DNA of 55,403 nucleotides from an uncultured virus (IMG/VR IMGVR_UViG_3300022689_000310). Lineage: Duplodnaviria > Heunggongvirae > Uroviricota > Caudoviricetes. The notes beneath the pieces are model-generated. The model did no database searches and was not told where the DNA came from. It saw nothing but the letters and a program-made list of their open reading frames with translations. The stretch lies in IMG/VR virus record IMGVR_UViG_3300022689_000310. One strand, written 5' to 3'. Of the stretch, positions 15,717 through 53,276 are shown piece by piece (position 1 is the stretch's first letter; every line of letters begins with the position of its first letter). Made by a program: the position numbers and the translations under genes.

Positions 15717-15980
15717 TTAATTTTTACTAAACGAATTAATATAGTTTATATATTTTCTATTCATATTTAATACACTTCTTTTCTGTTCATCTGATAATCC
15801 TTTTATATATATATTTTCTGATCTTTCTTCTAAATTGTATATACACTCTATAGATTCTTCTGTTAATGTAATTATTCCTAAATATCCATCTTCATAACAA
15901 AGATAATATCTATTTTGTAAATCCAATATAGGTACTGAATTAATTATTAAACTCAAGCTTACTAAAAGACTTTTCATCAT
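15717..15980 (-). CDS. Small exported two-Cys protein (paralogue family)
   Basis: Signal-like N-terminus, YLC..GYLGIITL..IEC..GLSD. Confidence 0.55.
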   Translation of the reverse strand: MMKSLLVSLSLIINSVPILDLQNRYYLCYEDGYLGIITLTEESIECIYNLEERSENIYIKGLSDEQKRSVLNMNRKYINYINSFSKN

Positions 15981-27771: not shown

Positions 27772-28941
27772 AAAAGACCCCTTTTCTAATTATAATTCAA
27801 TTACCAGTTGAATCAAAAAGGGGTCTGCTGGGTAAACAAACATCATGAATCTCGGACTACCTCCAAGAGGTATTTTATTAACTTTTTAGGAAAAATCTTC
27901 TCCCTAAAATTTATTAAAGGGAGAAGATTTGACAAGGAGAATTTGTGTGTTTTATACGGGAAATGTTCCGTCTTGGACTACCTCCAAGAGGTAGTTATAA
28001 TCTTAAGAAAAAACCCCCTTTTATTTCTACAATTCGATCAAAATAGAAATTAAAAGAGGGTTAGCAAGAGCATAAAAGGCAATGATTTGTCTGACTTATT
28101 AATCAGACTATCTGGTTCTTGGACTACCTCCAAGAGGTAGAAAACCCTCCTATTATAAAGTAAATAGAAGGGCAGATGAGTTAAAAAGGAATTACAAAGT
28201 GATGTTCAATCACATATCTCGGACTACCTCCAAGAGGTAATGTAGTATTAAGAAACCCCTCTCCTTTATTTTTACAATTCAATTAAATAGAAAATAAAGA
28301 GAGGGGTACTTGGTAAACAGATTACCCAAAATCTTGGACTACCTCCAAGAGGTAAAAAATTTAGTATCATTCACATAACTTATTTCTTCTTTTTATATCT
28401 TGCATTGGTTCTAAAAATAAAACATTATTGACCAGAAACAATTCTTAATTGATTTATTTGACTATCAGTAAGTTCTTCTAAATAAGTAGGATTACCTAAA
28501 GAATAATCAATTATATCGATACAAACAACTCTTAAGTCAGGCGTTGGAGAGATAGCAGCAATACCTCCCCCATATTTTTCTAAACAATACAAATAATTAT
28601 CATTTTTATCAAGAATAGGGGAGTATAGAGAGAAATTAGAAGATACAAGTAAAGCGGTTAAAAATTTAAGTACAGTCATAGTTTTATTATATTATTTACA
28701 TTTTTAATAAAAACCTCTTTGATAATAAAATTAGATCAAGATTAAAATCAAAGAGGTTTGGGTTTCTCCTGAATCAATTAGGATCTCGGACTACCTCCAA
28801 GAGGTAAAAAGTCCCTCACTCTTAACGAGCTTGGGAGAGAACTGAACCCCTTGTTATTAAATAAATAAAAGGGGTGTCAGGATTAAGAAGGTACAAATTA
28901 CGTTCAATCAACCTGATGTCTTGGACTACCTCCAAGAGGTA
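27772..28941 (-). repeat. Array B locus 1: seven copies of a 23-bp hairpin repeat with variable segments and terminator-like hairpins
   Basis: Plus-strand TCTYGGACTACCTCCAAGAGGTA at 27850, 27971, 28117, 28217, 28332, 28784, 28919. Confidence 0.95.
28425..28679 (-). CDS. Small exported two-Cys protein inside array B
   Basis: Signal-like N-terminus; YLYC..GGIAAI..VVC..LEELTD. Confidence 0.55.
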   Translation of the reverse strand: MTVLKFLTALLVSSNFSLYSPILDKNDNYLYCLEKYGGGIAAISPTPDLRVVCIDIIDYSLGNPTYLEELTDSQINQLRIVSGQ

Positions 28942-29205
28942 GGAGATTTAATATCCCCAATATAACTTATTTTTTTCTAGCTGCTTCTTTTAATGAACTT
29001 ATTATACTAGAATTCTCTTCATCTTTATATAATTCTTTTCCTGCCATATATATTATTAATATAATTAATGGAGAGAATAATATACTTAATATATATAGAA
29101 TCCATCATATTGTTCTATTTATCATTAATCTTTTCCTCTCTTCAGAATCAATATATTCCTGTTATCTTTCTATTTTATTTTATATAAATATTAGTCCTTA
29201 TTATC

Positions 29206-30183
29206 TCATGATGTAGTTATAGATAAATAATATTGATATATATCTGTTAATTCTATATATTCACTACTTGTGAATATAATCTGAATATTATTTATATTTG
29301 CTATTTCCTTTATTTTCTGAATATAACCTATAGGTATATCTAAATCATCTATAAGTAGTACTTCATTCTTACCTAGTACTATATACATCAATATGTATAA
29401 TATTTTCTCTTGTTTTCTAGATAATACTTTATACCACTTATTATTTATCTTTATCTTTATGTTTGATATTTCATAAACTATATATTCCTTTTGTATAGTT
29501 ACTTGTTTATTTATATAAATATCCTCTATATTTAATACTTCCTTTATATAGTTAATTAATCTACTATATAAATTATCAATATTATTACTCTTTACTATAT
29601 CTATCTTTTCTAATATATGTACTCTACTTTCTTTTATATCTTCTTCACTTTTTATTTTTAATATATAGTTATAATATTTTTCTAAACTAGCTTTTGTCTT
29701 ATAAGTCTTTCTAAACTTTTTACTAGATATATTTTCTATATTGATTATATTTCCCAACTCTTTTTTTAATACTTTTACTTCATTTGGTTCTTCCAATAAA
29801 TATAATAAAGTTGCGTTGATAGATAATTTTATTTTATATTCTTTTCCTTCTATATATGTAATATCATTAGCTCTAGAAAATACCTTTTTTTTATTTACAA
29901 TTAAACATTCATTATTAATATTAAGTTTATGTTCACTTACTGAACCTTCTGAGACCTCTGAAGGTGCAATATCCTCATTCTTTATTTCTCCATTCCATTC
30001 ATATACATCATCATTTATCTCTATAATCAATTCCCATTTATAATAATTACTAAATTCACATTTATCTATTAATCCTGTACCTATTTGCTTTAGGTTATAT
30101 ATAGAATTTAATAATAAACTTTTACCTGATGCTATATCTCCATAGATACAATTCATATATTTATTAAATGAGACCGGTCCCAA
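29206..30183 (-). CDS. ABC-type ATPase; true start probably slightly upstream
   Basis: YGDIASGKS, LLIDD, IIFTS; frame stays open up to an AAGGAGGT SD near 30235. Confidence 0.7.
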   Translation of the reverse strand: MGPVSFNKYMNCIYGDIASGKSLLLNSIYNLKQIGTGLIDKCEFSNYYKWELIIEINDDVYEWNGEIKNEDIAPSEVSEGSVSEHKLNINNECLIVNKKKVFSRANDITYIEGKEYKIKLSINATLLYLLEEPNEVKVLKKELGNIINIENISSKKFRKTYKTKASLEKYYNYILKIKSEEDIKESRVHILEKIDIVKSNNIDNLYSRLINYIKEVLNIEDIYINKQVTIQKEYIVYEISNIKIKINNKWYKVLSRKQEKILYILMYIVLGKNEVLLIDDLDIPIGYIQKIKEIANINNIQIIFTSSEYIELTDIYQYYLSITTS

Positions 30184-30306: not shown

Positions 30307-30954
30307 TTAATACTTTTCAAGTGCTATTTTGAGAGCATCATTATAAGTATGATTAAATGGAAAATATTTAGTGGGTATGTCTCCTTTCCAACTATCTTTT
30401 AATTTATAAGATTTTATAGATGTTTTAGAATCTTTACTTTCTTTATATAATAGATTTATTATTACATCTTCACTATTAATATTTCCCTCTATTATATTTA
30501 TAGTAATAGCATCCATTACTTGTAAAGAATGAGTTTCTAATACTATACTATTTTTATTATTTAGTCTTTCTACAATATAGTTAGTTAGTCTATGTATATA
30601 TTTCTCTGATAATCCCAATTCAGGATGTTCTATAGCGACTTTATTCCGAGATATATTAGATAGTTCTAATATTATAGGTATAGATAAATTAATACCTGCG
30701 CTATTTGATTGTTCAAAAATATTATTTTTCTCATCAATATTAAATATCTTTCTTATAATTGGTTGACTTTCAGGAGTTAACTCGTAAAACCTTCCTCTTG
30801 TAGTATTTAATACTTTAAAACTTTCCTTATTTTTCAATTCTCTTATCACTTCACTCTTACCTGTTGCATTATCTCCTATCAATATTGTCAAACGTTTTAA
30901 GATAATCTCATCTTCTTTATTAAATATTTTATTGATTAATTTTAAGCTTTTCAT
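30307..30954 (-). CDS. Compact ABC-type ATPase
   Basis: IGDNATGKS, SAG, IEHPELGL, LETHS. Confidence 0.75.
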   Translation of the reverse strand: MKSLKLINKIFNKEDEIILKRLTILIGDNATGKSEVIRELKNKESFKVLNTTRGRFYELTPESQPIIRKIFNIDEKNNIFEQSNSAGINLSIPIILELSNISRNKVAIEHPELGLSEKYIHRLTNYIVERLNNKNSIVLETHSLQVMDAITINIIEGNINSEDVIINLLYKESKDSKTSIKSYKLKDSWKGDIPTKYFPFNHTYNDALKIALEKY

Positions 30955-32129
30955 CTTTCTAAATTTCTTAATTACTACTTATAGATTATTATTTAATTTA
31001 TATATTTATATTTAATATTTTATCTATATCTTTTTTAAATATATCGATAGGATATTCTTTATGATTTATAACTAATGGATGAATAATTCTAATTACATTA
31101 CAATTTTCTAAAGGTATTAAATTTATTTCTTTATGTTTAAATACTTCTTTTTGTTCATTTAAGAAAGTATCTAATGATTCTTCTATAAGATTATTAGTCC
31201 TATATTTCATTTCATTAAATACATCTTCAACTTCAATCTGATATCTATTCAAATTACCATCATTATAATTTTCATACACAGATATATATGCTCCTTTATT
31301 ATATTGTCTTCTTATTAATCTTTGCCATTTCTCCAAAGTATCTAGTCTATTTGTTCCATTAAGAAAAAAGGTATATCCAGGTATAGATATACCTATATCT
31401 ATACTTTTTTCTTCAAATCTATTATATATAGTATTTCTCTTTATCAACTTAAAGTATTTAATAATATTACATTTCATATATTCTTTATTCATTCTTTAAT
31501 TTCCCATCTATTCTCTTTATAATTAAATATTATTACATCATTCCAAGGTAGAGTGAAAGCTTTAGATTTATCTATTTTTTCTTTCGATATTTCATATTGA
31601 GGACAATTCTTTTCTATATATTTTTCTACTATATCTTGATCGTTTAATAAAAATAGAATAAGAGCATTATCTGTAGTTCTTGCTTTTTCATCATTATTCC
31701 AATTTTCTTCTGTCCTTAGTAATACATTTAAATGGTCTAACAGATCTATTGTTAAATAATTTATATTCTTTTCCATACAATTTCTCTTATTAAATTAGTC
31801 TTCTAATTACTTTACAAAAGTCTCGCTTCGCTCGACACTAAAAGGGGTATCTGGTTAAATAAACTCTTTATACTTAAGACATATTAAAACTGTTTAAGTT
31901 AAGAAGGTCCCAAATATAAACATAACTGACCCCTTTATTTTTTTACTTAAATATAAATATTAATTATTCGGTCAATTTAAATTTAAAAGTATTCTAATTA
32001 CTTTATAACTAAAGTAATTTAATAAAAGAGGAGGATTAAGTTAAATTTTTTACCAGCGTTGGTTTTCTATAAAGAAGAACTTTAATTATTTAGTTGACTT
32101 TAATTCAAAAGTCTTCCAATTACTTAAGG

Positions 32130-32436: not shown

Positions 32437-34548
32437 ATGAAAACCCAATCTTATAATGATCAAGTTCGTCATGATAAAGATGGCTCACTCCCATCTTCTT
32501 CTAATTATAATATATCTTCTATAAGTAATAAAGAGCTAAATAAAATGAGCAGTACAAAAATCCTTAATAAAAAATTCACTGGTAAAATCACAGCACGCAC
32601 TTCTAAAGGTAAAGATCGTTCTCTTACCATTAGTGCTATTTTCAATAAACTAGATCTTATGGATCTTTATCTTAGAGCTATTGGTACTAATGATCAAGAT
32701 AGAATAAAAATCTCTTTAAATCTTACTGCCGACCATAAAGGTCGTACTCTTGCCCTTAAAGAAGGTTTATATTGGATTACAGAGCAAAATGTTTACTCTG
32801 ATGGTACTAAGTATACATCTTCAGAAGCTTTAGAAAAGCTTCAATCTTTAGGTATTCTAAAAAAAGTATCTCATTCTCAATATGTTAAAGGTGTTGCTAC
32901 TGAAGCAGTTGTAAATAAAGTTAAGAAATTAGCTTATATTGTAAGTGATTCTATTTGTTTTATCTTAGATAATTCTTTTTTTGATATTATTGAGTTGGCT
33001 GAAAGTATTTATTCGATCTCTACAGATAAAGTTTATTGGGAAGATCCTACTAAACAAATGATTGCTAAAATAGCTGAAAAAGCTTATCTCACTTCTCTTA
33101 ATAGAAATAACTCTGAAAAGTTTATTCGTATCACTTTCTCCCTTTCTAGAATTAAAGGAATTCAGAGTCGAGAAGGTATTACATCTTCTTTAGTTTTAAC
33201 TCTTATTGATGCTTTCCTTCCGGGTTATCAACCAGGTAGGAAACAAAAGATTTATGAAATATTACAGAAGAAATATTCTCTTGAAGAGAAAGAGTTAGAA
33301 GAAATTAGAAAACATCAAGAATATAAAGAATATCAAGAACAAGGGGTTTTTGAGCAGACGATAAATAAAGATAAGGAAACAGAAACGCTCTTGCAGAAAG
33401 AACAAGATAAGGACATGAAAGTAGAGGGGAAAGGGAAGAAGGGTAAGATGAGGGGTGAGCTAGAAAGGTTATTACAAAGGGAGATATACAGGGAGAGTCA
33501 TGACCTTCCCTGTATATCCCCATCATTTATCCATGCCCTTGAGACCTTACCTCCCGCCCAACTCCAGCCTGTCCGCTCTACCACTCCTTCTGCCCTGCGA
33601 GCGGAGTGTTCTACATATCTCAGTGAGACAATAAGTGAATATGCATCTGTGTATAATGAAGCGATAGGTTTAAATGTATTGAGATATAGATGTAGGGATC
33701 TCCAAGATGTAAGGCAAAAGGAAGTACTAAAGAGAGAAGCCCTTCCTGTGGAATATTTATTACTATCGGATAATAGTGCCCGAATGTATAGTAAGAGGAA
33801 AGATAATTTATTTTATTGTAGGAAGGATTTAAGGATAAGTGCGTTAGAAGGGATGGGATTTAAGGATGTAGACATGCAAAGTTGTCATGCCCAGATAGCG
33901 GTAAGTTTATGGGGAGAAGAGCTAAAGACGTTAAAAGAACATTTAGATAAAGGAACATTATGGAGTTATTATAAGAGCCATTTCGAGAGTAATGGTTTAA
34001 AGTTCTATAAAGGATTAATAAAAGGATTACATCATGCTAGTTTTCTTGGAGGAGGGAAGAAAGCTCAAGAGAAGATATTAAGAGGATATAATGTAAAGAA
34101 TAAAGGTAAGGAGATAAAAGAAGAAGAATGGAAGAAGATAATAAAGTGTTTTAAGGATAGTGAAGTATATAAAGAATTAAGAAAGTTATTCAGGAAGTTA
34201 AGTAAAGAATGGCATAATAAAACGATAACAACGATAACAGGGGAAAGTTTTGATGTAAGAGGATACAGAAAATATAAAGAGAATGGGGTAACTAAGAGCA
34301 ACCCCGGTAATTTATTAACAGCGATATCAGCAGTACTACAATCAATAGAAGTAACATTAATATCTTATATGATATTAAGAAGTAAAGAATTATTTGTACC
34401 AATATTATGGCAACATGATGGATTAACGATCAAGTGTTTATATAGTAATACAGTAGAATTAATGCAAGAAGCATTAGATGAATATAGTAAAAAGTTATTA
34501 GGAAGACGGATAAAATTAGTAGCTACAGATTTAGATCAAATGAAATAA
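32437..34548 (+). CDS. Family-A polymerase-like (TV-Pol-like) protein, possible replication initiator/primase
   Basis: C-terminal R-MY, DVDMQSCH (motif A), K..HHASFLGG (motif B-like), LQSIE, QHDG (motif C); no exonuclease motifs recognised. Confidence 0.6.
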   Translation: MKTQSYNDQVRHDKDGSLPSSSNYNISSISNKELNKMSSTKILNKKFTGKITARTSKGKDRSLTISAIFNKLDLMDLYLRAIGTNDQDRIKISLNLTADHKGRTLALKEGLYWITEQNVYSDGTKYTSSEALEKLQSLGILKKVSHSQYVKGVATEAVVNKVKKLAYIVSDSICFILDNSFFDIIELAESIYSISTDKVYWEDPTKQMIAKIAEKAYLTSLNRNNSEKFIRITFSLSRIKGIQSREGITSSLVLTLIDAFLPGYQPGRKQKIYEILQKKYSLEEKELEEIRKHQEYKEYQEQGVFEQTINKDKETETLLQKEQDKDMKVEGKGKKGKMRGELERLLQREIYRESHDLPCISPSFIHALETLPPAQLQPVRSTTPSALRAECSTYLSETISEYASVYNEAIGLNVLRYRCRDLQDVRQKEVLKREALPVEYLLLSDNSARMYSKRKDNLFYCRKDLRISALEGMGFKDVDMQSCHAQIAVSLWGEELKTLKEHLDKGTLWSYYKSHFESNGLKFYKGLIKGLHHASFLGGGKKAQEKILRGYNVKNKGKEIKEEEWKKIIKCFKDSEVYKELRKLFRKLSKEWHNKTITTITGESFDVRGYRKYKENGVTKSNPGNLLTAISAVLQSIEVTLISYMILRSKELFVPILWQHDGLTIKCLYSNTVELMQEALDEYSKKLLGRRIKLVATDLDQMK
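33481..33520. other. Near-perfect 40-bp palindrome, candidate replication origin
   Basis: GATATACAGGGA-GA-GTCATGAC-CT-TCCCTGTATATC, G-rich to the left and C-rich to the right. Confidence 0.5.
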
Positions 34549-40272: not shown

Positions 40273-41298
40273 TTAATGTTTAAGTAAATATTTATTACTT
40301 ATAACTTTAAAACTAGTTTGATTATCATAAGTTCTAATGACTAAACCTTCTCTATTAGTTAAAGGATTCAGTATAGAAGAACCTTCAGCTAATAATAATA
40401 GCTCCTCAATAGTATCAGGAAGTTTATAGTTCTCTTCTATAATAGGTACTATATTAAGTCCCATAGAAAAGATTACTCTTTCTAATACTTTTTTATCTAA
40501 TTTCTTAGAAGTACTTATATCAAATAAGGTAAAGAAATAAATATCATTAGTATGTAATGCATATTTATTTTTATTAATACCTTCTCCTAGAAGTTCTCCT
40601 TGTATAGCGATATTATCTAGAGGTAAATTTTTCAGTTTAGATATAATATCTAAACTTTTTACAGTATCCCAATATCTATCTCTATCATTTTCTAAAAGTT
40701 CTATATTTCTAGAACAGACTCCTATTTTCCCTTCAAATTTATAAATAGTTATAGAAGAGCCATCTAACTTTTCAGTTAAATAATAACTTTTAGTTTTTAA
40801 CTCTTCATAACAGGAATATAAATTTTGTATTCTCTCTTCATCTGTTTTCTCTATATAACTTGGTATAGAACCTTTAGCTCTACTATACATTTCTTTAGGT
40901 AATGGACGTTCATATTTCCTAATACCAAGTATATCTGTTAAGTCAAAACCCTCTACCAATTTAATGTCTTTTAATTCATCAAATAAAGAAGGATTGAGTA
41001 GTAAGCCTTGTGACACTTGACCTCTTAATTTTTTAGTTTTGAGTAAATATCCTTTATAAATTTCTTTTGAGTCAGTACTATCAGAAGATTCTTTAATAGA
41101 ACTCTTATTTAAGAATTCGAATTCTGGTCTTAGAGGTAAAAGAGAGTCTATTTCAAAATAGACTCCTATATCTCCAACTTTAAATTCACCCCTTTTTACA
41201 ACTACATTCCACCCATCAATTGAAGCTAATTCAATAAGATCAGCTCCATCAATAGATTTAATATCTATTACTTTTCTAAAGCTAGCTAGCTTTCTCAT
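40273..41298 (-). CDS. RNA ligase, DRB0094 family
   Basis: RKLAS, GADLIE, YFEIDS, LRGQVSQG, KTDEERIQN, TEKLDGSS, QGEL, REGLV, SFKVISN. Confidence 0.92.
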   Translation of the reverse strand: MRKLASFRKVIDIKSIDGADLIELASIDGWNVVVKRGEFKVGDIGVYFEIDSLLPLRPEFEFLNKSSIKESSDSTDSKEIYKGYLLKTKKLRGQVSQGLLLNPSLFDELKDIKLVEGFDLTDILGIRKYERPLPKEMYSRAKGSIPSYIEKTDEERIQNLYSCYEELKTKSYYLTEKLDGSSITIYKFEGKIGVCSRNIELLENDRDRYWDTVKSLDIISKLKNLPLDNIAIQGELLGEGINKNKYALHTNDIYFFTLFDISTSKKLDKKVLERVIFSMGLNIVPIIEENYKLPDTIEELLLLAEGSSILNPLTNREGLVIRTYDNQTSFKVISNKYLLKH

Positions 41299-43049
41299 TA
41301 TTTATCTCCTTTTTTGTTAAAAATATTTATCTTTTTAGGAGTCTTAAGAGCTTGAAGATTAGGAATATGATCTTCTAAAAAGGCAATATGTTTACTCTTA
41401 ATACCAATACAATAAGCAGCATTTATATCTGCATTAATACAAAGTTTAGTCCCATTAGGATCATAATACACCTTCCCTTCTTTAGAGGTATTAATGTACG
41501 TTACATATAGACCTCTATATTTTCTATTTCCAAGAGGATTAAAATCTACTTTACTTTTTTTCTCTTTATTTTGTTTATCAGAAGAATTGTCCTCTTCGTA
41601 ATCTTCAGGATTATAAACAGGAATATCTCTATTCAGGAAACAAGATTTACTAGTATAAGATTCTTCTTGTAGTATTAATTTAATACCATATCTTTTACAA
41701 TAATAAGCTAATTTGGACTTAAAATTATTAAAAGGAATCATAACAAAGTTCTGATTATTCTTTTTACTTAAATTAATATTTGTTTTCTGTTTTTTATTAT
41801 GACCTATAATAATAGTACCAATATCTTTTTCAATACAATAAGAAATTACTTCTAAACAAGCTTTATACATATAATCTCTTAACTTACAACTTCGACTATA
41901 ACTAATATTTACTTGTTCATCAGTAAACTTTCTTCTACGTCTTTTTATATTAGAAAATTCTTTTGTTTCTGTATTATCTTCATTATGTGTTTTCATACCT
42001 TTACTGATTAACTCTTCATTCAGCTTTTTATCTTCTTGAGATTGAATAGCCGCCATCTTTTTATTATAAAAATGATTAGTAGATTTCATGCATTTTCCGT
42101 TTATAATAAAAGAAGAGTCTTTCTGACCATCAGTAAATGCTGCATAAGCTGATACGAAGTTATTTACTCCTAAATCAATACTTAATGCGTTATTTTCATT
42201 TAATCCTTTTGCTTCAATTTCATGAGCAGTAACAAAGTGTACTTTTATTACTCTCCCATTATAAGCAGGTTCGATTCTAATTAGTTTTAGTACCGTCCCT
42301 TCTTTCATTAATCTTTCTGGAAAAGGAATCTTGCAATAATTATTAGTACCCCTTCTCTTAGGAATTTTAATATAATATTTACCTCTCCCTATTTGGCCTT
42401 CTTTATATTCTTTTACCGATTTTAAGATATTAGTAGGGTCACCTATCCTAAAACAAATTTCGTTATAACCTTTTCTGGGTTTTCCTTCTTCCTCCTTTTG
42501 TCCCTTGTAATAAGGTAGTTTAACCGGTTCTTTATACTTCCCACTTAATTTCTTATTAAGTAAGGCTATATAAGATTTATAAGAGCTAAATGCTTGTTTT
42601 AATACATTATTTGAAATCACTGAAGGTAAACAAATAAAGTTTTCATCCTTTTTTACAGTGTTATAAAGTTCCTTTTCATCTATATAATTAGGAAAATTAC
42701 CTTCCTCCCTTTTTCTTTTTATGATCTCTTTTAATTCTTTATGTTCAATATCTCTTCCTAATTCTTCTTTTAATTGTTCTTTTACTTCATCTGTTAGCTT
42801 CTTTATTTCATAATCTCTTTGTCTAATAATATATAAACATCTATTAAATAGTGCACAAGATTTTCTAAATAGATCAAATAAATAATTTATTTCTTCTTGT
42901 TCTAAATATTTTAAGTCCAATGTATTTGTTTGAGTTCTATATTGAATCTCTTTAAGCTCCTTATTAGGCTCTTTACTTTCTTTTTTATCAATACTTATCT
43001 TTTGTTCACTTAATTCTACTACTTCATTATATTCATCTTCTGATTTCAT
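41298..43049 (-). CDS. tnpB: TnpB-like RuvC nuclease without adjacent transposase
   Basis: SIDLGVNN (RuvC-I), QEESYTSK (RuvC-II), RGLY, INADINAA (RuvC-III); catalytic D/E/D present. Confidence 0.9.
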   Translation of the reverse strand: MKSEDEYNEVVELSEQKISIDKKESKEPNKELKEIQYRTQTNTLDLKYLEQEEINYLFDLFRKSCALFNRCLYIIRQRDYEIKKLTDEVKEQLKEELGRDIEHKELKEIIKRKREEGNFPNYIDEKELYNTVKKDENFICLPSVISNNVLKQAFSSYKSYIALLNKKLSGKYKEPVKLPYYKGQKEEEGKPRKGYNEICFRIGDPTNILKSVKEYKEGQIGRGKYYIKIPKRRGTNNYCKIPFPERLMKEGTVLKLIRIEPAYNGRVIKVHFVTAHEIEAKGLNENNALSIDLGVNNFVSAYAAFTDGQKDSSFIINGKCMKSTNHFYNKKMAAIQSQEDKKLNEELISKGMKTHNEDNTETKEFSNIKRRRRKFTDEQVNISYSRSCKLRDYMYKACLEVISYCIEKDIGTIIIGHNKKQKTNINLSKKNNQNFVMIPFNNFKSKLAYYCKRYGIKLILQEESYTSKSCFLNRDIPVYNPEDYEEDNSSDKQNKEKKSKVDFNPLGNRKYRGLYVTYINTSKEGKVYYDPNGTKLCINADINAAYCIGIKSKHIAFLEDHIPNLQALKTPKKINIFNKKGDK

Positions 43050-43082: not shown

Positions 43083-43321
43083 ATTATTCAGTTGACTATA
43101 TCTATCTAGTCTTCTGATTACTTTTAACCTTACAAAGAAATTTCTTTAATAAGGACACTTATTATTCAGTTGACTAAGACATATAGTTTTCTAATTACCT
43201 TTTTATGAGAAAATTAGTTGATTCCTTTAGTAAGAATACTTACTATTCAGTTGCCTAGATCTATTTAGTCTTCTGATTACTTTATTATGAACTAGTTCTC
43301 ATAAGCCTCGCTTCGCTCGGC
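43083..43321 (-). repeat. Three ~44-bp imperfect-hairpin repeats (period 78/81) plus a GCGAAGC element, upstream of tnpB
   Basis: TATTCAGTTGACTA..TAGTCTTCTGATTAC variants with the CAGTTG core at 43089, 43167, 43248; GCCTCGCTTCGCTCGGC at 43305. Confidence 0.85.
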
Positions 43322-43383
43322 ACTATACGGATATCTAATTAAATAAATCCTTATACATTATAGACTCAATAAATCCTTATATA

Positions 43384-43701
43384 TCAAAGACCAGTATCTT
43401 GTACCCCTGCTAAATTTAGTACTCTATCTTTTCCATTATTTGAAAGGGTAGTAAAATATATTCTTGCATTTATTACATACGAACATATAAAGTCTTCATT
43501 CTCCTCATATCTAAAGTTCCCATTTTTATCTATTAATACTACATAACCTTCTTCCTCTTTACAAGGATAAAATTGTCCATTAATACTAATTACTCCTAAT
43601 TGATTATAAGCTTGAGCTTTTAGAAATATATTTAATAATGTATATATAATAATAGTTAAACTTAAAGTTAAATTTAATTTTTGTTTATAAGTTAGTTTCA
43701 T
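43384..43701 (-). CDS. Small membrane-anchored two-Cys protein (paralogue family)
   Basis: TM segment then YPC..EGYVVLID..FIC..TLSN. Confidence 0.55.
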   Translation of the reverse strand: MKLTYKQKLNLTLSLTIIIYTLLNIFLKAQAYNQLGVISINGQFYPCKEEEGYVVLIDKNGNFRYEENEDFICSYVINARIYFTTLSNNGKDRVLNLAGVQDTGL

Positions 43702-44076
43702 AAAATTTTCCTCCTAATTTTATCTTTTTATTACTTTTAGAATGAATTAGTTTTCATAAGCCTCTCTCCGCTCGGTACTAATTAATAAACTAGTTTCAGT
43801 TTAAAAAGGGTGTCTATTAGTATTGATACCCTCCAAAGTTAAAATCTCCACTTTCTTTCTCTTTTATAGTGACAACATTTATTACTCAGTTGACTATATT
43901 TATTTGGTCTTCTGATTACTTTTTACATATTCCTAATAATATTGATGAAGTTCATTAGAGTGTTTTTTCACTTAGCATTATAAATAAAAGAGGATATAAA
44001 CTTTATATCCTCTTATCTTTAAAGCATCTCTTCACGTAGTCTGACCTCAACAATCCCTTGAGGGATTATATTTATG

Positions 44077-44979
44077 TCATCCAAAACCTTTATTTTTTTT
44101 ATTAAATAGTTTAGTTTTCTTCTTCTTATTTAAAAGATCGTTTAAAATCAAATATCTCATGTTATAAGACCAATCTGTTAAACCTATCAAAGCTGCAAAT
44201 GAAAATGATAATTTTTTATAATCTAATATATCTCTTTTACTATGATCTGGAAAAGAGTTTTTCATTATACTCACTTTTACCAACTTATCCCATAGTTTTT
44301 TATCATTACATTCTAGTAGATATAAAAATACTTCTTTACTTACTTCTAGATGAAAATTAGTATCAAAATCATTTCTTAGTAATGAGAACTTTGACTCCCA
44401 ATATTTTAGATTATGTCCCTTAAATCTTTCTTTATCTTCAAATACTATTAATATTGTACCTAGACTTGAGTTTAATCCCTTTTGCGTTAATATTTTAACT
44501 TCTTCCTCTATACTAATATTTCTTACTATAGAATTTGTTTTTAGATTCTCTTTTATAAACTTTTTTATCTTATTAGGTAATTCATTTATTAACTTTTTAT
44601 CTTTAAATTCCCAATATATACTATCTACCTTTTTTATTTCTTCTTCAAAATCATAATCATTTCTTGTATAACTAAATATTTCCCATAAATATTCTCTAAA
44701 TAACTCTTTCCTCTGATTTCTTAACTCTTTTACTCCTAATTCTATTAGTTTATTCCCTCCTTTAGAATTTACTCTTAAACGACATTCTTCTGTCTCTTCT
44801 GTTTTCTGAAAATGTCTAAAATGAGACTTTACTTTTTTTCCTTTCCTCTTAAATTCTTTTGTTAAGTAAACTTCTTTTTTGCAATATGGACAGATTAATC
44901 CCCAATCTTTATAAGACTCATAATTACACATATTAGGTGTAATTGTTGTTAGATTATATATCGACCAGCATATATCCAT
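44077..44979 (-). CDS. CoiA-N-like zinc-finger protein (paralogue 3)
   Basis: CNYESYKD.GLICPYCK...HFRHF...EC; full-length similarity to 22783..23688. Confidence 0.6.
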   Translation of the reverse strand: MDICWSIYNLTTITPNMCNYESYKDWGLICPYCKKEVYLTKEFKRKGKKVKSHFRHFQKTEETEECRLRVNSKGGNKLIELGVKELRNQRKELFREYLWEIFSYTRNDYDFEEEIKKVDSIYWEFKDKKLINELPNKIKKFIKENLKTNSIVRNISIEEEVKILTQKGLNSSLGTILIVFEDKERFKGHNLKYWESKFSLLRNDFDTNFHLEVSKEVFLYLLECNDKKLWDKLVKVSIMKNSFPDHSKRDILDYKKLSFSFAALIGLTDWSYNMRYLILNDLLNKKKKTKLFNKKNKGFG

Positions 44980-45059
44980 TTCTTCCCCTCCTCTCTTTTC
45001 TCTTATACTCTATTTATTTTTATATCAATTTCTCGAAGATTTTTCTTTTGGTATGAACA

Positions 45060-46270
45060 CCTTATATTCAGTTAACTAGAATCTATCTAGTCTTCTGATT
45101 ACTTTTTATTAACCAGTTATCATAACCTTTGCTTCGCTCGACATAACGAAGATTCCTAGAATAGGACTATTATTATTTAGTTGACTAAATTAACTATCTT
45201 TAGTCTTCTAATTACTTTTTATGAACTAGTTATCATAAGCCTCGCTTCGCTCGGCACTATAAGGGTATCTGGTTGAATGAATATCTTTATACTTTAGTAC
45301 TATAATATTTCTATACTCTTTTACTAATATATCTTTTTTATGTTCATCTAATTCTTATTATTTTTATTGTTTTATAGCAAGCGAAAGAAGACTCCTAGAA
45401 TAGGATTATTTATTATTTAGTTGACTAAATTAACTATCTTTAGTCTTCTAATTACTTTTTATTAACCAGTTATCATAAGGCTCGCTTCGCTCGGCACTAT
45501 AAGGGTATGTGGTTGAATAAATCTCTTTATACTTTAGTACTGTAATCTTGAGGTACTTTTAATATATCTTCTTTATGTTCATCTAATTCTTATTATTTTT
45601 ATTGTTTTATAACGGACGAACAAAGATTCCTAGAATAGGACTATTATTACTTAGTTGACTAAATTAACTATCTTTAGTTTTCTAATTACTTTTTAATGAA
45701 CTAGTTATCAAGAGCCTCGCTTCGCTCGGCACTACAAGGGTATCCGGTTGAATAAATCTCTCTATACTTTAGTACTAAAATCTTAAGATACTTTCTTACT
45801 AATATATCTTCTTATCTTTATCTAACTCATATTATTACTACATTCAGTTTAATAATCAAATCTCTTTTGCTTCTTCTCTGTCATTGTTTAATAACAACAT
45901 TTATTATTCAGTTGACTAAAATTAGTCTTCTGATTACCTTATAAGGAATTAGTTATCATAAGCCTCGCTTCGCTCGGCACCATAAGGGTATCTGGTTGAA
46001 TTAACCTCTTTATACTTTAGTACTATCTATAATACTTAGATACTGTCTTACTAATATATTTTCTTTATCTTTACCTAATTCAAAGTGAAATAAGACTCCA
46101 AGAATAAGAATAATTATTATTTAGTTGATTAAGTTAATGATCATTAGTTTTCTAATTACTTTTATATTAATTATTAAGATAGATGCGTGCAGATTTAGGT
46201 TCTTTGTTTAATAACAACATTTATCACTCAGTCAACTAAATTTATCTAGTTTTATGATTACTTTTTAATA
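45060..46270. repeat. Tandem ~240-bp structured non-coding repeat block
   Basis: GCCTCGCTTCGCTCGGC cores at 45239, 45479, 45714, 45962 (partial at 45125), each preceded by the AGTTGACT..AGTCTTCT hairpin. Confidence 0.9.
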
Positions 46271-46398
46271 AACTAATTTCAGTATAACAGTTGAGTTTCT
46301 GAACTGAATCTTTTAAAGTTTGGGGAGGTTTACAGAGGGAATCAAATCCCTCTGTAAGTTTGGTAGATTTCTAAAAGTAACCCAACCTCTTTTATTTT

Positions 46399-46560
46399 TT
46401 AATTTGGAGGATAAACTATAGGATCTTCATCATCATAGTTATAAGAAGATTTAGAGTCGGTATCTTTAGAATCATATTGTGGTTCTAACCATACCATTGG
46501 ATCTCCATCTTCACTGTATAAAGTATTTTCTTCTTTTCTTTCTTTCTCATTTTCATTCAT
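46399..46560 (-). CDS. 53-aa acidic peptide (not in ORF track)
   Basis: AAGGAGA SD then MNENEKERKEENTLYSEDGDPMVWLEPQYDSKDTDSKSSYNYDDEDPIVYPPN; a hairpin follows at 46329-46357. Confidence 0.55.
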   Translation of the reverse strand: MNENEKERKEENTLYSEDGDPMVWLEPQYDSKDTDSKSSYNYDDEDPIVYPPN

Positions 46561-47336
46561 GTTTTTATCTCCTTTTCTTTATTATCTAGCTGAATAGACT
46601 ACCAATTATTTATATATCACTGTTTGAATGGTTGAAAGATTATATAAGATTCCTTCCATATTGTACTTACTTACCTTTTAAGTTTATAATTACATATTAA
46701 GATTTAATTTTTATATCTACACTATAACGTTTTTTATCTAAGCACCTATTATTTACTCTTAAGAGTAACAATTATTATATATATATATATAATCAATCTT
46801 CTGATAGTTATATTATAAGTTTGTATATAAATCTAGGGAGTAATGTAAAATACTTAATAATTATTTAGTAATCATTATTTTCTTTTCTTGAAATCCAGAA
46901 GGTAAAGTACTATCTTCATCATAGTAATCCTTAATTATTCTTTCATTAGATAATCTTAATATTCTTCTAGCTATTAAGATATCTTCATTTGTATTTAGAT
47001 GCCAATTTATTTTAGTTGGACTTAATATTCTACTTCTACTACTTCTCAAATTTTTATTAAATTTATTATTTTCAATTACTTCATTACTAGATTCTTTTAA
47101 AGCACTTATTATACTATCTATATCTTTCTTTACCAAATTCTCAGAGATATTCTCATAATAATTATGTTTATTCCTATATATATAATATCCCTTATATGAT
47201 TTATTCTTTTCACCTTCTACCCATTTTATACCTTTAAATCTTCTTAGAATTATGTTTCCTTCACTATCATAAGGTATTAAGACAATTGCTATCTTCTGCA
47301 CTTCTTATTTCTCCTTATTAATTTTAGATAATAAAG

Positions 47337-47385
47337 TAAACTGCTTTATATTCAACGTTATATTTAGTGAATATAAAGCAGTTTA
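47337..47385. terminator. 18-bp perfect inverted repeat, terminator-like
   Basis: TAAACTGCTTTATATTCA-N13-TGAATATAAAGCAGTTTA, intergenic. Confidence 0.5.
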
Positions 47386-48132
47386 TTGTGGATCTATAAT
47401 TTTATAGGACTCAGGTATAAACTATCCCAATGTAGTGGTATTTTCAACTTTATCTCTATTCATTATAGGGTAAATAAAAAACTTTGTTTTCATCTATCAT
47501 TTGTTGCCATCCAGCTATAGACCATGTTACTGTAGTCTTTAATACTTCTTCCATTTGTCCTGAGTCAAATGGTTTTAATATACCTATTGCAAATCTAAAA
47601 GGTCCTACATCTTTAGGAACTTCATTCTTTACAATAACTGTAACTTTATGTCCATTAACTAGATCTTCATATTTTCTCATATGATACATATTTATACTTT
47701 CTATATTAGTTAGATCCACAATATATTTACCTACAATATCTTTACTATTTACCATTATTCATTTCTCCTTATTTATTCTTTCTAGTTTATCTCTTCATCA
47801 AGATTAATCCCCAACTATATGTTGAGGCATTTAATTATATCTTAGTTTTATCATGAACTAGTTATCATAAGCCTCGCTTCGCTCGGCACTAAATGGATAT
47901 CTAGTTAGTAGAGTATAAAAGATTGTCTTTTTCTCCGTGATTGTTTAATAACAATATTTATTATTTAGTCGACTAAATTAGTTATTTCTAATCTTCTAAT
48001 TACTTTACTATACGTATATTTACTTGAATGTATCTCTATATACATTATCTCAAATTTTCTTTATAATAGTAATTACTGAACTCAGTAGGTTCAATTTGTG
48101 AAAGTATTTGATTAGTCTTCCAATCACTCATT

Positions 48133-48813
48133 TTATAAATCAAATATAAAAGTATTATTATCTGAATTCATTCCAAGACCTATGAATATAGTTCCTGTAT
48201 TCATATAGATACATGAATAATTTAAATGATGATGACCGTGTATCAATATTTTTGGATTTAATTTCTCTACTATAGCTGTTAAAATCTCTCTTGATCCTTC
48301 ATTAGGATGAGTAATTACTCTGTTCTGAGGACAGTCATGACTTATTACAATATCTATATTCTCTTTTTCTATACACTTAATATAATCTTTATTAGTAAGT
48401 TTTTCTTCATGCCACCAATCCATTCCAGGAGTTCTACTATTTTTATCTATAGAATCAGCTCCCCCAATATATAATATCTTTTGATTATTTAATATTTCTG
48501 TATAACCTCTTGGAATATAAAATATATTCCCCCCTTTATAATCTATTTCCATATTACTTAAAGGAGTCGGTAGAGGGGAATATTTATAAGATTGAATTAC
48601 TTCATGATTTTCATGATTACCATCTATCCAGTAGATATCTATATTATTATCTATATGATTTAGATCTTTTATGAATTGTGAATATAGATATGGAAATAAC
48701 CCAAAATCTCCTACTTGTATTATTCTGTCACATTTATTCTCTTTTGCTTTTTTTATAGCTTCTTTTAATAGTTCTATTTCACCATGTATATCTCCTAAAA
48801 ATAATATTCTCAT
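48133..48813 (-). CDS. Calcineurin-like metallophosphoesterase
   Basis: GDIHG, VGDFG, DGNHE, SHDCP, HGHHH. Confidence 0.92.
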   Translation of the reverse strand: MRILFLGDIHGEIELLKEAIKKAKENKCDRIIQVGDFGLFPYLYSQFIKDLNHIDNNIDIYWIDGNHENHEVIQSYKYSPLPTPLSNMEIDYKGGNIFYIPRGYTEILNNQKILYIGGADSIDKNSRTPGMDWWHEEKLTNKDYIKCIEKENIDIVISHDCPQNRVITHPNEGSREILTAIVEKLNPKILIHGHHHLNYSCIYMNTGTIFIGLGMNSDNNTFIFDL

Positions 48814-49379
48814 TATGTTTTTCTCCTTTCCTTTAATATGAATATAAATTTTTATTATTTATTTATCTTTAAAAGCCTTCTAATTATTTTTCAATGAACT
48901 CGTTATCAAGAGCCTCGCTTCGCTCGGCGCTTAACGGGGTAACTCGTTAAAATATGTATTTATTACTCCCCTTTTAATACAATATATTATTATTATTATT
49001 TAAATATTCAAATCTTTATCATTCCAAGCATCTAAAGCTTCTTCAAATGTAGAGAAAATTAATTCATTTTCTTCTGATTCATCTGAGACCCAAAATTTTA
49101 TTTCATTCTTAATAGGTTTTATTTCAATACCCATTTGTCTTTTTTGTCCATATTTATTTCTTGCTGATGCATTTAGTAAATAATGTCTAATAGTATAATT
49201 ATTAAACATTTCTTTAACGTCTTCTGAATTCATTAAATCTTATATATCAAAGATGAATCTATTATCTTCTGATTTTATCCCTAAATCTATATAAATACTA
49301 TTATTATTAATACAAAAATATCTACATTCTTTTGTTATATACAATTAAGATAATCTATAATATTAAGTTTTTTCTTCAG

Positions 49380-49550
49380 TCTACTAATCTATTCTTCTTT
49401 TTATCTATAGAATCTACTCCTCCTATATATAATATCTTTATATCATTTATTCTTTCTTAATAACTTCTTATCTTTCTTCCATTCTACTTAATAGAGTCAG
49501 TAGAGGGTAATATTTATAAAATTCAATTACTTTAAGATTCTCATAAAATA
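49380..49550 (-). pseudogene. Fragmentary copy of the metallophosphoesterase gene
   Basis: TTTTATCTATAGAATCTACTCCTCCTATATATAATATCTT and GAGTCAGTAGAGGG..TATTTATAA resemble 48440-48482 and 48564-48602. Confidence 0.6.
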
Positions 49551-49777
49551 TATCTCCTTTCTTTAAATAGAAATATTTATTATTTAGTTGACTTTAAAAG
49601 TCTTTTTAATGAACTAGTTATCAAGAGCCTCGCTTCGCTCGGCACTCAAAGGGTATCAGGTTGAATAAATCTCTATATACTTTAATATTACTTTATTTGG
49701 CATTTAAACTAGGGTAACTGGTGATACTAATATTTTTTATATTGAAAGATCTATTCTCGAGTTAAATCTTTTCATTT

Positions 49778-49960
49778 TTAATCTTTTTTCTCTCCACTTC
49801 CATTACATTTATCACAAGTTCTCCAATCCCCTGATCTTGTTTTTACTTGACCGCTCCCATTACATCCGTCACATGGCTCTGGTGGATCACTACTATATGA
49901 ATATCTTCCTTTTCCCCTCTTACCCCCTTTACCTCCTCTTCCACTAGGCATAATTATCAC
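49778..49960 (-). CDS. Small Gly/Arg-rich protein with two CxxCxGxG motifs
   Basis: CDGCNGSG, CDKCNGSG. Confidence 0.7.
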   Translation of the reverse strand: MIIMPSGRGGKGGKRGKGRYSYSSDPPEPCDGCNGSGQVKTRSGDWRTCDKCNGSGEKKD

Positions 49961-50599
49961 CTCTTACTCTTAATAAATTAGTTACTAAAGGTCTCGCTTT
50001 GTTCTCCACTAAAAGGGTAACTAGTTGAATATTAATCCTTTTAATATATTAAGCGAAGCGAGAGTTAAGTATCGATTATTAAAATTTTATTATTTGGTTG
50101 TAATCAATATATTTTTACATTCTTTTTGTTGAATAGACCAATAAGAATTTTTATTAAAACTTATTTTACATTCTATAGTTTTATATATAGGAAAACCTAT
50201 ATATATAAGAGTTGATATTATTATTAGAATTACAATTAGTTCTATTAAAGTTAATCTTATTTCTCTCATTTATCTAACTACATATATTTACTAATCCGTT
50301 ACCATCAGTAATATCTATATCTACTTCATTTCCTAATTTCTTTTCTATTTTCTTTATCCATTCATCTTGTTCTTTTATATATACTCCAATATATAAAATG
50401 TATTTCGTATCCTTTTTTTTCTTCTCACGTATTTCATTTAAATTATAATCTTTTTCTCCCTCCTTACATATATTCTCTAATATCTCATTATATTCTTCAT
50501 TATCATGATATACTAATATTCCTAGAGGAGTTTTTTTTATTTCTATTTTCTTTTCCATAAGTATTTCTTTAATTTAATTATGTTTTTAACTGGCCTTTT

Positions 50600-50943
50600 C
50601 ATTAATTATTAAAACTATTTTAATGAAGATTTTATATATGTTGATACATTCTCACATACTTCAATATTATACCAACCAAATGCGTCATCTACTCCTGATA
50701 ATAATCTCTTCTTATCCTCTCTTGAAAGTTTCCTCATTACTTCTCCATCTATTTTGAACTCTTTATCTTCTAAATACAAATAAGTTTCTTCATCATATTA
50801 AAGTCACTATATATTTCTTCTATTGGATCTCCCTCTTTAAATATCTTATATAAAATAAAACTTACCCCTCCTTTATATACTTTAGTATTTACTCCTCCAA
50901 ACCTTAATTTACCTTCTTCCTCAATTAAAACTAATCTTCCCAT
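50600..50943 (-). pseudogene. Frameshifted, shortened paralogue of 50988..51587 (left end approximate)
   Basis: MGRLVLIEEEGKLRFGGVNTKVYKGGVSFILY...IYSDFN, then a shift to ..YLEDKEFKIDGEV. Confidence 0.6.
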
Positions 50944-50987
50944 TTCCTTTTTTCTCCTTTTACTCTATTTATTCTATTATTAAATAT

Positions 50988-51587
50988 TCAAAATGGACGT
51001 TCTATATACTCTAAAGCTTTTATACCAATATCTCTATTTTCTATAAGTTTTATTCTTTGTTTTAAGACTTTTAAATCTTGAGATCTAAACTGCCTTTTTA
51101 CTTTTCCTTTTATTTTTAATTCTTTATCTTCTACATAAAATTTACTATCTCCTATGTATATATTAAAGTCCGTATATATCCTCTTTATATCTTCTTCTTT
51201 TCTCTCTTCATATAGAATGAAACTTATTCCTTTTTCCATACTAAAGATATTCATTTGATAATAATAATCATCTTCATGTCCTTCTTCAGTATATATATTA
51301 CTTTTTATGGGTAGAAATTTATCTTCCAATTTATTCTCTTTTACTAATCTATATATCTCATAATATAATTCTGGTCTTTCCTTAAGACCTTCTTCTAATA
51401 TTCTATATACTTCTATTTGTTCTATATCTTTTAGATTTATATCTTCATCTATCTTAATTGATATTGTATCTCTATCTTTTTTATTCAGTTTTACTATATA
51501 AGGTACTATATTCCCTTTATATACTGTAGTTTTTACTAGTCCAAACCTTAAATTTTCATCCTCTTCAATTAAAACTAATCTACCCAT
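50988..51587 (-). CDS. Hypothetical protein (MGRLVLIEE family)
   Basis: 199-aa ORF with two decayed neighbouring copies. Confidence 0.65.
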   Translation of the reverse strand: MGRLVLIEEDENLRFGLVKTTVYKGNIVPYIVKLNKKDRDTISIKIDEDINLKDIEQIEVYRILEEGLKERPELYYEIYRLVKENKLEDKFLPIKSNIYTEEGHEDDYYYQMNIFSMEKGISFILYEERKEEDIKRIYTDFNIYIGDSKFYVEDKELKIKGKVKRQFRSQDLKVLKQRIKLIENRDIGIKALEYIERPF

Positions 51588-51639
51588 ATCTTTTGATCTA
51601 CTTTATTACATTTATTCTTCTAAAAGAGCACATTGATTT

Positions 51640-51915
51640 AAAAAACCCCCTTTTTCTTAAAATATAAATACTTTAAGAAAAAGGAAGATAACTAGGCTGA
51701 ATCTAAGTCTCAGACTACCTCTGAGAGGTAAGTACGTAAGTAAATAAAACCCGCTTATAAAAAGCGGGTTGTCTACCAAGTCATACGCGATATGAATCTC
51801 AGACTACCTCTGAGAGGTATTAAGAAAACCCTTTTCTCCCTTTTATAATCTTAAAAGGGAGAAAGGTTAAAAGGAAATTCACGTGCGTTTAATCTTGGAC
51901 TACCTCCAAGAGGTT
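51640..51915 (-). repeat. Array B locus 2: three more repeat units
   Basis: TCTCAGACTACCTCTGAGAGGTA at 51708 and 51797; TCTTGGACTACCTCCAAGAGGT at 51893. Confidence 0.93.
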
Positions 51916-51928
51916 TTATTAATAAAAA

Positions 51929-52347
51929 CTATTTCTTTTTTATCTTAATCAAAGTTATGTAGATAAAATATTGTTTGTTGAGAAGTAAACTGAAATACTT
52001 TAATAAAATCTCTTTTGTACGTATTACTTTTATTTCTCCTCTTATATCTTCTATTACTTCTTCATCTCTTTCTATATCTTCTTTATGTATATATATGGGT
52101 ATAATCTTAACCACTTCTCCATTTATTTTTAATTCTTTATCTTTTATATCAAAATTATATATATTAAAGTCTGTATATATTCTATTTATATCTTCTCCTT
52201 TTTTCTTTTCTTTTCTCTTCATATAAAATAAAACTTATTCCTCTTTCCATACTAAATATATTTTCTTCTTTAGTATTACTTCTTATAGGTAAAAATTTAT
52301 CTTCATCTTAAAGTTTTATTTTCTCTAATTAAAACTAATCTACCCAT
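51929..52347 (-). pseudogene. Chimeric remnant of 50988..51587 and the 3' end of 52677..53276
   Basis: MGRLVLIREN.. then a stop; patches EDKFLPI, IFSME.GISFILY, IYTDFNIY, then IIP.YIHK.DIERDEEVIED.RGEIK. Confidence 0.65.
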
Positions 52348-52676
52348 AATTTATTCTCTTTATTTAAGTATTAATGGGACCTCCACTCTAAATAAATCCC
52401 TCTTATCCAGTTCCTCACTTAGTTTATTTACTCTATATTTTTTCTCTAATAATTTATTTATTACCTCTTCATATTCATAATTTTCACTTGGCTTTCTTAT
52501 TCTTGATATATGTACTATTACACTATTTTCGTTATTTTCTGTTGCTTCTATTAGTTTATCAAGTATCTCATTTATTTTCTTTTCATTTTCAGGAGCTCTA
52601 GCATATCCTAATTCTTCAAATGCTTTAATTGCCCCTTCAATATATGCTATGTATTTTCTCATAACTTATTTTCCTC

Positions 52677-53276
52677 TTAACTGAAATATTTTAATAATAT
52701 CTCTTTTGTAGGTACTATTTTTATTTCTCCTCTTGTATCTTCTATTACTTCTTCATCTCTTTCTATATCTTTTTTATGTATATATCTAGGTATTATTTTA
52801 ACTATTTCACCATTATAGAATCCTTCAGAACTTAATATTCCTGTATCTAATCTATAATACTCTTCTACTTTTTCATCTAATCTTTCATTTATATATCTTA
52901 ATTTCTTATGTTTTTCTTCATTTAATTCATCTATTGTTCTAATAAACTTTATTAGATTTTCTAACTCTTCCTTTACAAAATAATAATAAGTATCTCCATC
53001 ACATTCTGATAAACAACAAAATCTTTTATCTAAATAAAATACGTTTTCAGATGACCATGATTTATTTATATACTGCCTTTTCAAGTAAAAACATTCTAAT
53101 CTTTCTAATACTTCTTTGAATTCTTTATTCTTACTTGTATAACTACTTGAAAAATAATCTATATAACCTATTTCTAACTGTTCAGATATCTCCCATATTG
53201 TATGTATATCTATCTCATCTTTTATCGCTTTCTCTCTATTTATTCCTTCTATTATTTCTCTTAATCTTTTCTTCAT
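52677..53276 (-). CDS. Hypothetical protein
   Basis: 199-aa ORF; C-terminus duplicated at ~51990-52110. Confidence 0.6.
   Translation of the reverse strand: MKKRLREIIEGINREKAIKDEIDIHTIWEISEQLEIGYIDYFSSSYTSKNKEFKEVLERLECFYLKRQYINKSWSSENVFYLDKRFCCLSECDGDTYYYFVKEELENLIKFIRTIDELNEEKHKKLRYINERLDEKVEEYYRLDTGILSSEGFYNGEIVKIIPRYIHKKDIERDEEVIEDTRGEIKIVPTKEILLKYFS

Follow-up and report, generated by a model that had tools for sequence, protein, structure and literature searches.

A 55,403-nucleotide stretch of DNA from an uncultured virus (hereafter the window) carries ten units that, judged from their sequence, are a real, strand-specific and multicopy RNA-like cassette. Each unit consists of a near-constant 23-nt handle, a unique spacer-like segment and a long hairpin that resembles an intrinsic terminator; that the handle repeats and forms a stem, that the units favour one strand, that their hairpins look like terminators and that the segments are unrelated can all be read directly from the DNA. 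The reading preferred here, held at somewhat under an even chance, is that the units encode crRNA-like guides built on a handle that is new. It is placed ahead of four others, in the order decoy RNAs, antisense small RNAs (sRNAs), a DNA-level repeat and tandem attenuators. Counted against guides are the lack, in the sequences searched, of any target above chance and of a multicopy host repeat like the handle, the non-adjacent position of the one TnpB gene in the window, and the four segments of 40-54 nt.

The handle pattern matches ten times in the window, where shuffled sequences give a mean of 0.10 and a maximum of 1 (0/100 shuffles reach ten). Seven copies lie at 27850-28919 (locus 1) and three at locus 2. 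An initial annotation had described locus 2 as three units at 51640-51915 with periods of 89 and 96 bp, belonging to the same family as a locus about 23 kb away, and this description holds: the handles start at 51708, 51797 and 51893 in plus-strand coordinates, the nearest locus 1 copy is 22,789 bases away, and a common plan of handle, segment and hairpin, which the annotation did not spell out, is found in 10/10 units across both loci. A search of the window for more copies, allowing up to 7 mismatches, returned one chance site, two self-overlaps and no extra copy.

All ten copies lie on the minus strand, which is also the coding strand for almost all genes in the window. The initial annotation had mixed its strands: the TACC and the GGTAG loop that it named belong to the minus strand, the likely RNA strand. 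On that strand the handle comprises a 4-nt flank, a 7-bp stem and a 5-nt loop, and 18/23 of its columns are invariant over the ten copies. The 5' TACC, once thought invariant, is kept in 9/10 copies and is AACC in the copy at 51893, where the GAGGTA flank, once thought unchanged, reads GAGGTT. The stem ends exactly at the start of the unique segment (20-54 nt), which the long hairpin follows. The units occur in clusters of 2, 5 and 3, spaced 89-146 nt apart, and all ten are more stably folded than shuffles (z -2.7 to -4.8). A conserved plus-strand peptide spanning the handle was considered and rejected, as the start is absent or a stop present in several units.

At locus 2, read along the minus strand, the first unit has its handle at 51893-51915 (common stem; 5' base A, not T), followed by a 25-nt unique, spacer-like segment (51868-51892) and a long, intrinsic-terminator-like hairpin with a U-tract (51824-51867). 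The second has a handle with two swapped base pairs (51797-51819), a 26-nt segment of the same kind (51771-51796) and a 9-bp terminator-like hairpin with a U-tract (51742-51770). The third begins with a handle identical to the second, swapped pairs included (51708-51730), and continues with a 20-nt spacer-like segment (51688-51707) and a terminator-like hairpin of 19 bp, three of them G.U, followed by six U (51640-51687). Decayed tandem gene duplicates (50770-52814) surround this locus, and such duplication may be how three units arose there. For a 199-aa protein neighbouring the array, no usable relative was found.

Locus 1 is split by an 84-aa minus-strand ORF of no known family (28425-28679), which has a twin in protein P0246. 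On one side, sub-array a (28710-28941, minus) holds two units with handles at 28919-28941 and 28784-28806, segments of 43 and 24 nt, and an additional hairpin with a U-tract between the units. On the other, sub-array b (27772-28354, minus) holds five, with handles at 28332, 28217, 28117, 27971 and 27850 and segments of 24, 43, 54, 40 and 25 nt, each unit being closed by a long hairpin and U-tract.

The hairpin behind each segment is 9-20 bp long. A U-tract follows it directly in 9/10 units, and in the tenth a second hairpin with a U-tract comes next. Read on the minus strand these hairpins contain 12 G.U pairs, compared with 3 on the plus strand. At locus 2 a terminator scan called all three on the minus strand (5 calls versus 0.3 expected); those of locus 1 were missed under its short-loop rule. 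In a window-wide scan for a hairpin plus U-tract, 7/11 minus-strand matches fell within these units. A common 27-nt leader lies ahead of sub-array a (28946-28972, minus), with a twin ahead of sub-array b (28359-28385). These are the two exact-pattern copies, six more sites in the window fitting only with up to 4 mismatches, and the leader may represent the promoter of both sub-arrays. The inner handles begin 1-14 nt after the preceding terminator and have no evident promoter, so either read-through followed by processing or a set of weak promoters would be needed to express them.

The sequences of the copies support the 7-bp hairpin. Standard pairs form in 70/70 stem cells, none being broken, where slid controls give 24-45%, and the swapped arms (of the TCTCAGA/TCTGAGA type) are present at 51708 and 51797 as had been claimed; in this pair of copies, two stem pairs have both of their bases changed. 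This pattern had been presented as direct covariation evidence for the hairpin. The hairpin itself is supported, but "direct" overstates the case: the two swapped copies are neighbours and identical across 23 nt, so the double change amounts to one event, not two, within a set of ten related copies. The number of doubly changed pairs is matched by 167/500 shuffles, and the cell count, reached in 5/500, is inflated by the relatedness of the copies. One of the swapped pairs is more informative, being UA in 5 copies, UG in 3 and CG in 2. The U.G pair, which the initial annotation overlooked, occurs in 3/7 locus 1 copies, and the path from U-A through U.G to C-G is thus represented among the copies. 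As the expected intermediate, and one that on the plus strand would be a C.A mismatch, it is stronger evidence for the stem than the double change, and the G.U excess of the downstream hairpins shows a strand bias of the same kind.

A palindrome of this sort might also be kept without any RNA. Under such an explanation the units would be a DNA-level or functionless dispersed repeat, multiplied by recombination, with its symmetry kept by template switching. The double change arose only once, and template switching from one palindrome arm to the other, at the DNA level, could yield it without RNA selection; the common handle folds almost alike on both strands (-8.2 and -8.0 kcal/mol); and the window contains two further families of hairpin repeats. 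Set against these points, 10/10 copies lie on one strand, nine of them with the U-tract on that side, and uncorrected U.G pairs are tolerated in the handle as well as in the terminators, where the bias between strands is 12 to 3. Moreover, the loop and flank are near-constant (flank 9/10), which palindrome repair would not maintain. A DNA repeat is accordingly judged improbable, ranking fourth among the readings.

The first of the two other families is an array at 5900-6660 on the minus strand, in which a 7-bp hairpin occurs six times and in several cases has a U-tract. The stretches between its copies are variable and mostly contain a purine-rich hairpin, and its conserved part resembles a 3' terminator; it is possibly another small-RNA family. 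The second (31805-31878 and 43265-50049) has 8-9 copies with a GC-rich core and long AT-rich flanks, located between small ORFs, some of them in tandem units of 235-248 bp.

The handle has more than one predicted fold. The initial annotation had proposed an alternative 5' TACCTC/GAGGTA hairpin, which in isolation (-5.7 to -6.2 kcal/mol) is 2-2.5 kcal/mol weaker than the long stem (-7.9 to -8.5 kcal/mol), yet in whole-unit ensembles it dominates in 2/10 units, one of them a swapped copy, with the long stem dominant in 8/10. A pseudoknot between the 5' TACC and the loop is plausible in reduced form only: the full 4+7 bp version would leave loops of 0, 0 and 1 nt, which general pseudoknot geometry makes sterically unlikely, and the same geometry makes 2-3 bp plausible. 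Pairing between flank and loop holds in 39/40 cells and never covaries, so it is neither supported nor broken.

Two alternative handle folds, and the location of both arrays in the leaders of co-directional genes, are what might be expected of tandem attenuators, in which the handle would act as a protein or ligand switch over the following terminator and gate the downstream genes. PyrR, moreover, tops the sub-threshold Rfam matches at locus 2, at 34.5 bits versus a cut-off of 54. That said, no antiterminator was found, since pairing between a segment and the terminator arm of its unit is no better than pairing with the arm of another unit (permutation p 0.59), the handle holds <1 nt of the terminator arm in 8/10 snapshots, and five consecutive switches would be extreme. 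Attenuation is the least probable of the five readings, and a very unlikely one.

The unique segments are 20, 24, 24, 25, 25, 26, 40, 43, 43 and 54 nt long, with 6/10 in the range of 20-26 nt. Over their first 22 nt their mutual similarity does not exceed that of dinucleotide shuffles (p 0.19), although 3/45 pairs score high versus 0.9 expected (p 0.06) and a few pairs have 8-9 nt words in common. The first 20 nt are 36% G+C, versus 24% for the window. The segments are also slightly more folded than chance (p 0.04 against dinucleotide shuffles; 0.003-0.07 against base shuffles), and this folding, like the common words, is unusual for free, independently acquired guides.

An arrangement of handle, seed and terminator is frequent among sRNAs, and the units could be antisense RNAs of that kind, whose segments would pair with host or phage mRNAs, some over the ribosome-binding site, with the handle binding a chaperone. 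By eye, the reverse complements of five segments resemble a purine-rich ribosome-binding site, in some cases followed by a start codon, and there is one 20-nt exact match directly before the start codon of a cyanobacterial gene. The pyrimidine runs also resemble decayed terminator arms, however, and the start-codon match covers the distal part of the segment only and belongs to one of 128 genomes with chance-level matches. Nor does any segment pair with the window's own RNA beyond shuffles when G.U is allowed (lowest p 0.07 of 20 tests). Antisense action is thus considered unlikely, ranking third.

The window is part of a 117,403-base contig and encodes two tRNA-Ser genes, arginyl- and histidyl-tRNA synthetases (ArgRS and HisRS), an RNA ligase, RNase H, TnpB and many small ORFs without a family; this gene content suggests a piece of a large phage, with no structural gene inside the window. 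The two synthetases (10866-12590 and 17099-18664) score above NCBIfam cut-offs and are apparently phage-borne, HisRS having an N-terminal extension of ~100 aa. The sole long ORF on the plus strand (703 aa, 32437-34548) has no Pfam or PHROG family; it adjoins the two tRNA-Ser genes, and its predicted model weakly resembles family A DNA polymerases. Three ATPase-like ORFs (15977-16735, 29206-30183 and 30307-30954) show PADLOC likeness to anti-phage components (NsnB, AbiLi, HEC), and two of them are immediately upstream of locus 1.

The host is probably a filamentous cyanobacterium, a call based on HisRS, whose top named matches are cyanobacterial at ~41% identity, and on TnpB, whose named matches include four cyanobacteria but also two Bacillota. 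The top named matches of the RNA ligase, from Ignavibacteria and Bacteroidota, count against such a host. Scans for related phage DNA with the 703-aa and a 668-aa window protein found none; those with TnpB, HisRS and RNA ligase gave 3, 4 and 80 loci, each with at most two window proteins in common. A 209,968-base contig encodes homologues of both HisRS and the RNA ligase.

Every target search depends on this uncertain host call, and the genomes searched, for repeats as for targets, may not include the true host. The searches detect matches of ~17 nt or longer, not seeds of 9-12 nt, and in large sets the top few candidates were scored per genome. Within that scope, no target above chance was found in the window itself, in 301 cyanobacterial genomes per locus (two candidates scored per genome), in 121 and 111 cyanobacterial genomes for single units, in phage and plasmid collections, or in one 19-nt exact scan of viral contigs. 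Several candidates were set aside as chance: a 19/20 nt match of the segment at 51688-51707, located at a stop codon, of a quality estimated to occur ~0.4 times; an 18-nt match over the distal segment at 51771-51781 and the terminator arm, in one gene of 7/121 related genomes; and scattered 17-18/20 matches without a common flank. In the reverse direction, host spacers against 20 kb of the window gave matches in 6/251 genomes (E up to 5e-4), with 0/6 inspected loci in a repeat array.

No multicopy match to the handle with up to 2 mismatches was found in 201 cyanobacterial genomes, 36 of which have one or two scattered matches, like the control. Three spaced copies of the loop motif occur in 5/381 genomes, all of them plain tandem repeats among the matches listed. 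Rfam places two tRNAs in the window and nothing else, with 21 and 18 sub-threshold matches, none of them at its cut-off. The exact handle pattern has 3 single matches in viral contigs and 34 in metagenome contigs, none in an array context, and many of these fall in one coding motif of GC-rich genomes; the two-copy pattern led to 5 unrelated loci. A covariance model recovered the window's own units plus one match at E 0.37 in 84 viral loci, and a search for a tracr-like anti-repeat found that, outside the units, no complement to the handle in the window exceeds 10 nt.

These results bear on the possibility that the handle alone matters. The units would then be decoys, with ten copies raising the dose of a small structured RNA that sequesters a protein of host defence or regulation, in the manner of Racr or of antitoxin mimics; the unique part would be a linker and the hairpin a guard for the 3' end. 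A handle that stays near-invariant while the remainder diverges is suggestive of this, as is the failure to find targets in the window or in the 301 cyanobacterial genomes per locus, and phage RNAs that titrate Cas proteins are on record in PMC10651486. A mimic should resemble a host RNA, however, and the handle has no multicopy match in the 201 genomes, no Rfam family, and no similar array in the 381 genomes save the five with plain tandem repeats, though the true host may be outside that set. Decoys are rated doubtful, if foremost among the alternatives.

If the units are instead guide cassettes, they should have a protein partner. No cas genes lie beside the loci among 76 ORFs scanned with Pfam and 16 with PADLOC; there is only a distant TnpB with a weak Cas12f score. 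This 583-aa TnpB/Cas12f-like protein (41298-43049, minus), separated from locus 2 by ~8.6 kb and from locus 1 by 12.4 kb, has the three RuvC acidic residues and no transposon right end. In alignment it is 37-40% identical to IS605-type proteins; three of its regions carry insertions, and it has a twin of 95% identity. The closest solved folds to its predicted model are Cas12f and TnpB, and with a mean pLDDT of 58 the model confirms the family only. The stop codon overlaps the start of the next gene, and a profile from 44 related right-end regions matches just the TnpB coding part (positions 24-89 of 191), so the usual kind of guide RNA is missing from the TnpB end. The cassettes were also rejected as IS605-type omega-RNA, there being no right end or omega-RNA 3' of tnpB and no resemblance of the handle to right ends from the closest TnpB family (p 0.67).

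According to PMC10097598, the guide RNAs of TnpB and of Cas12 commonly have a pseudoknot-stem adjoining the guide, and condensation of omega-RNA is a possible origin of tracr-independent guides. These ideas make a pairing of TnpB with the handle attractive. As partner of the cassettes the window's TnpB is a candidate only, and an unlikely one; a host or phage protein from outside the window is slightly better placed, if still doubtful. It is likewise unlikely, though conceivable, that the phage domesticated a transposon TnpB nuclease, did away with its long omega-RNA and supplies it in trans with ten separately terminated guides on a 23-nt handle.

No description of a family of such cassettes was found in the literature, and the supplementary candidate tables of the Cracr study could bear on novelty. 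The closest likeness is to Cracr itself, as described in 10.1101/2024.10.29.618823: a phage-borne single hairpin handle, a spacer-like segment and a terminator, with several guides per genome. This plan, intergenic and closed by a terminator hairpin, is found in 10/10 units here. CracrVA1 combines a repeat-like handle, spacer-like sequence and a rho-independent terminator, and matures to a 19-nt handle plus a 21-nt guide with only a 10-nt match to its target promoter. A match that short would account for the absence of full-length targets here. Cracr RNAs are further characterized by a seed match with a PAM in a cas or toxin promoter; the searches here, sensitive to ~17 nt or more, gave chance-level matches lacking a common flank. 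Unlike these cassettes, for which no host repeat was found in the cyanobacterial genomes searched, Cracr handles copy known host repeats (V-A, I-B, I-C, I-E, I-F); where targets are assigned, a Cracr array has two or three spacers rather than ten units at two loci with their own terminators; and Cracr hosts belong to three other phyla, with no cyanobacterial host named in the text.

Racr (PMC10651486) is also a small RNA from phage intergenic regions, in which non-repeat sequence comes after a conserved hairpin, but it is solitary and matches a host repeat, whereas the present units form clusters of 2, 5 and 3 with no match found. Phage Cas12r (10.64898/2026.04.20.719267) uses a short handle followed by a guide, one repeat being enough, and is 564 aa versus 583 aa for the TnpB here; its gene lies 15 bp from a regular repeat-spacer array, in contrast to terminator-split units with no adjacent effector. 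TnpB omega-RNA (PMC10097598) likewise goes with a TnpB-family protein and has a stem adjoining the guide, but its scaffold exceeds 100 nt at the gene's own end, where here it would be 23 nt and in trans. TldR is nuclease-dead, whereas the TnpB here retains its catalytic residues. UG27 ncRNA arrays (10.64898/2026.09.22.753630) are phage arrays of structured, diverse units, sometimes in several intergenic regions; their units, of ~150 nt and poorly conserved in sequence, adjoin a reverse transcriptase gene, and no such gene was seen among the 76 window ORFs scanned.

Other identities were rejected. A CRISPR array is ruled out by the periods of 89-146 nt, the hairpin in each unit and the absence of adjacent cas genes. 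TIGR-Tas (PMC12045711) has 36-nt dual-spacer units, box C/D motifs and a Nop-domain protein alongside; here there is one unique segment per 89-146-nt unit and no Nop domain in the 76 ORFs. VIPR, a 5-nt periodic RNA of alternating GGY/NN, has no counterpart by eye in the aligned units, which lack a 5-nt period. No match was found in 10.64898/2026.10.21.760802 or PMC12197685 either.

As guide cassettes, the units would be small-RNA genes of a large phage, built as single-repeat crRNA-like genes. The constant folded 5' handle would be bound by a protein, the first ~20 bases of the unique stretch would serve as the guide, and the terminator would define the 3' end of the RNA. The most likely use would be to load a type V (Cas12/TnpB-like) effector, which would be steered to the DNA of the host or of a competitor, probably through short seed matches, for repression or cutting. 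Transcription, 5'-end processing of the inner handles, protein binding and guide function are all what we infer from the arrangement.

Even as decoys or antisense RNAs, the units would make up a multicopy family of phage RNAs that is new. If they are guides, they would represent a repeat-spacer-terminator format on a handle used by no reported effector, stacked tenfold in a group of phages for which the collections searched hold no close relative; they would point to an unidentified RNA-guided protein and carry crRNA-like counter-defence by phages over to a host that is likely cyanobacterial. Were the orphan TnpB the partner, it would be a compact nuclease whose guide scaffold ranks among the shortest, and condensation of omega-RNA to crRNA would become directly testable. 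A domesticated TnpB with ten guides, if true, would constitute an RNA-guided system that is multiplexed and independent of CRISPR, and a living intermediate in the transition proposed to lead from TnpB to tracr-independent Cas12.
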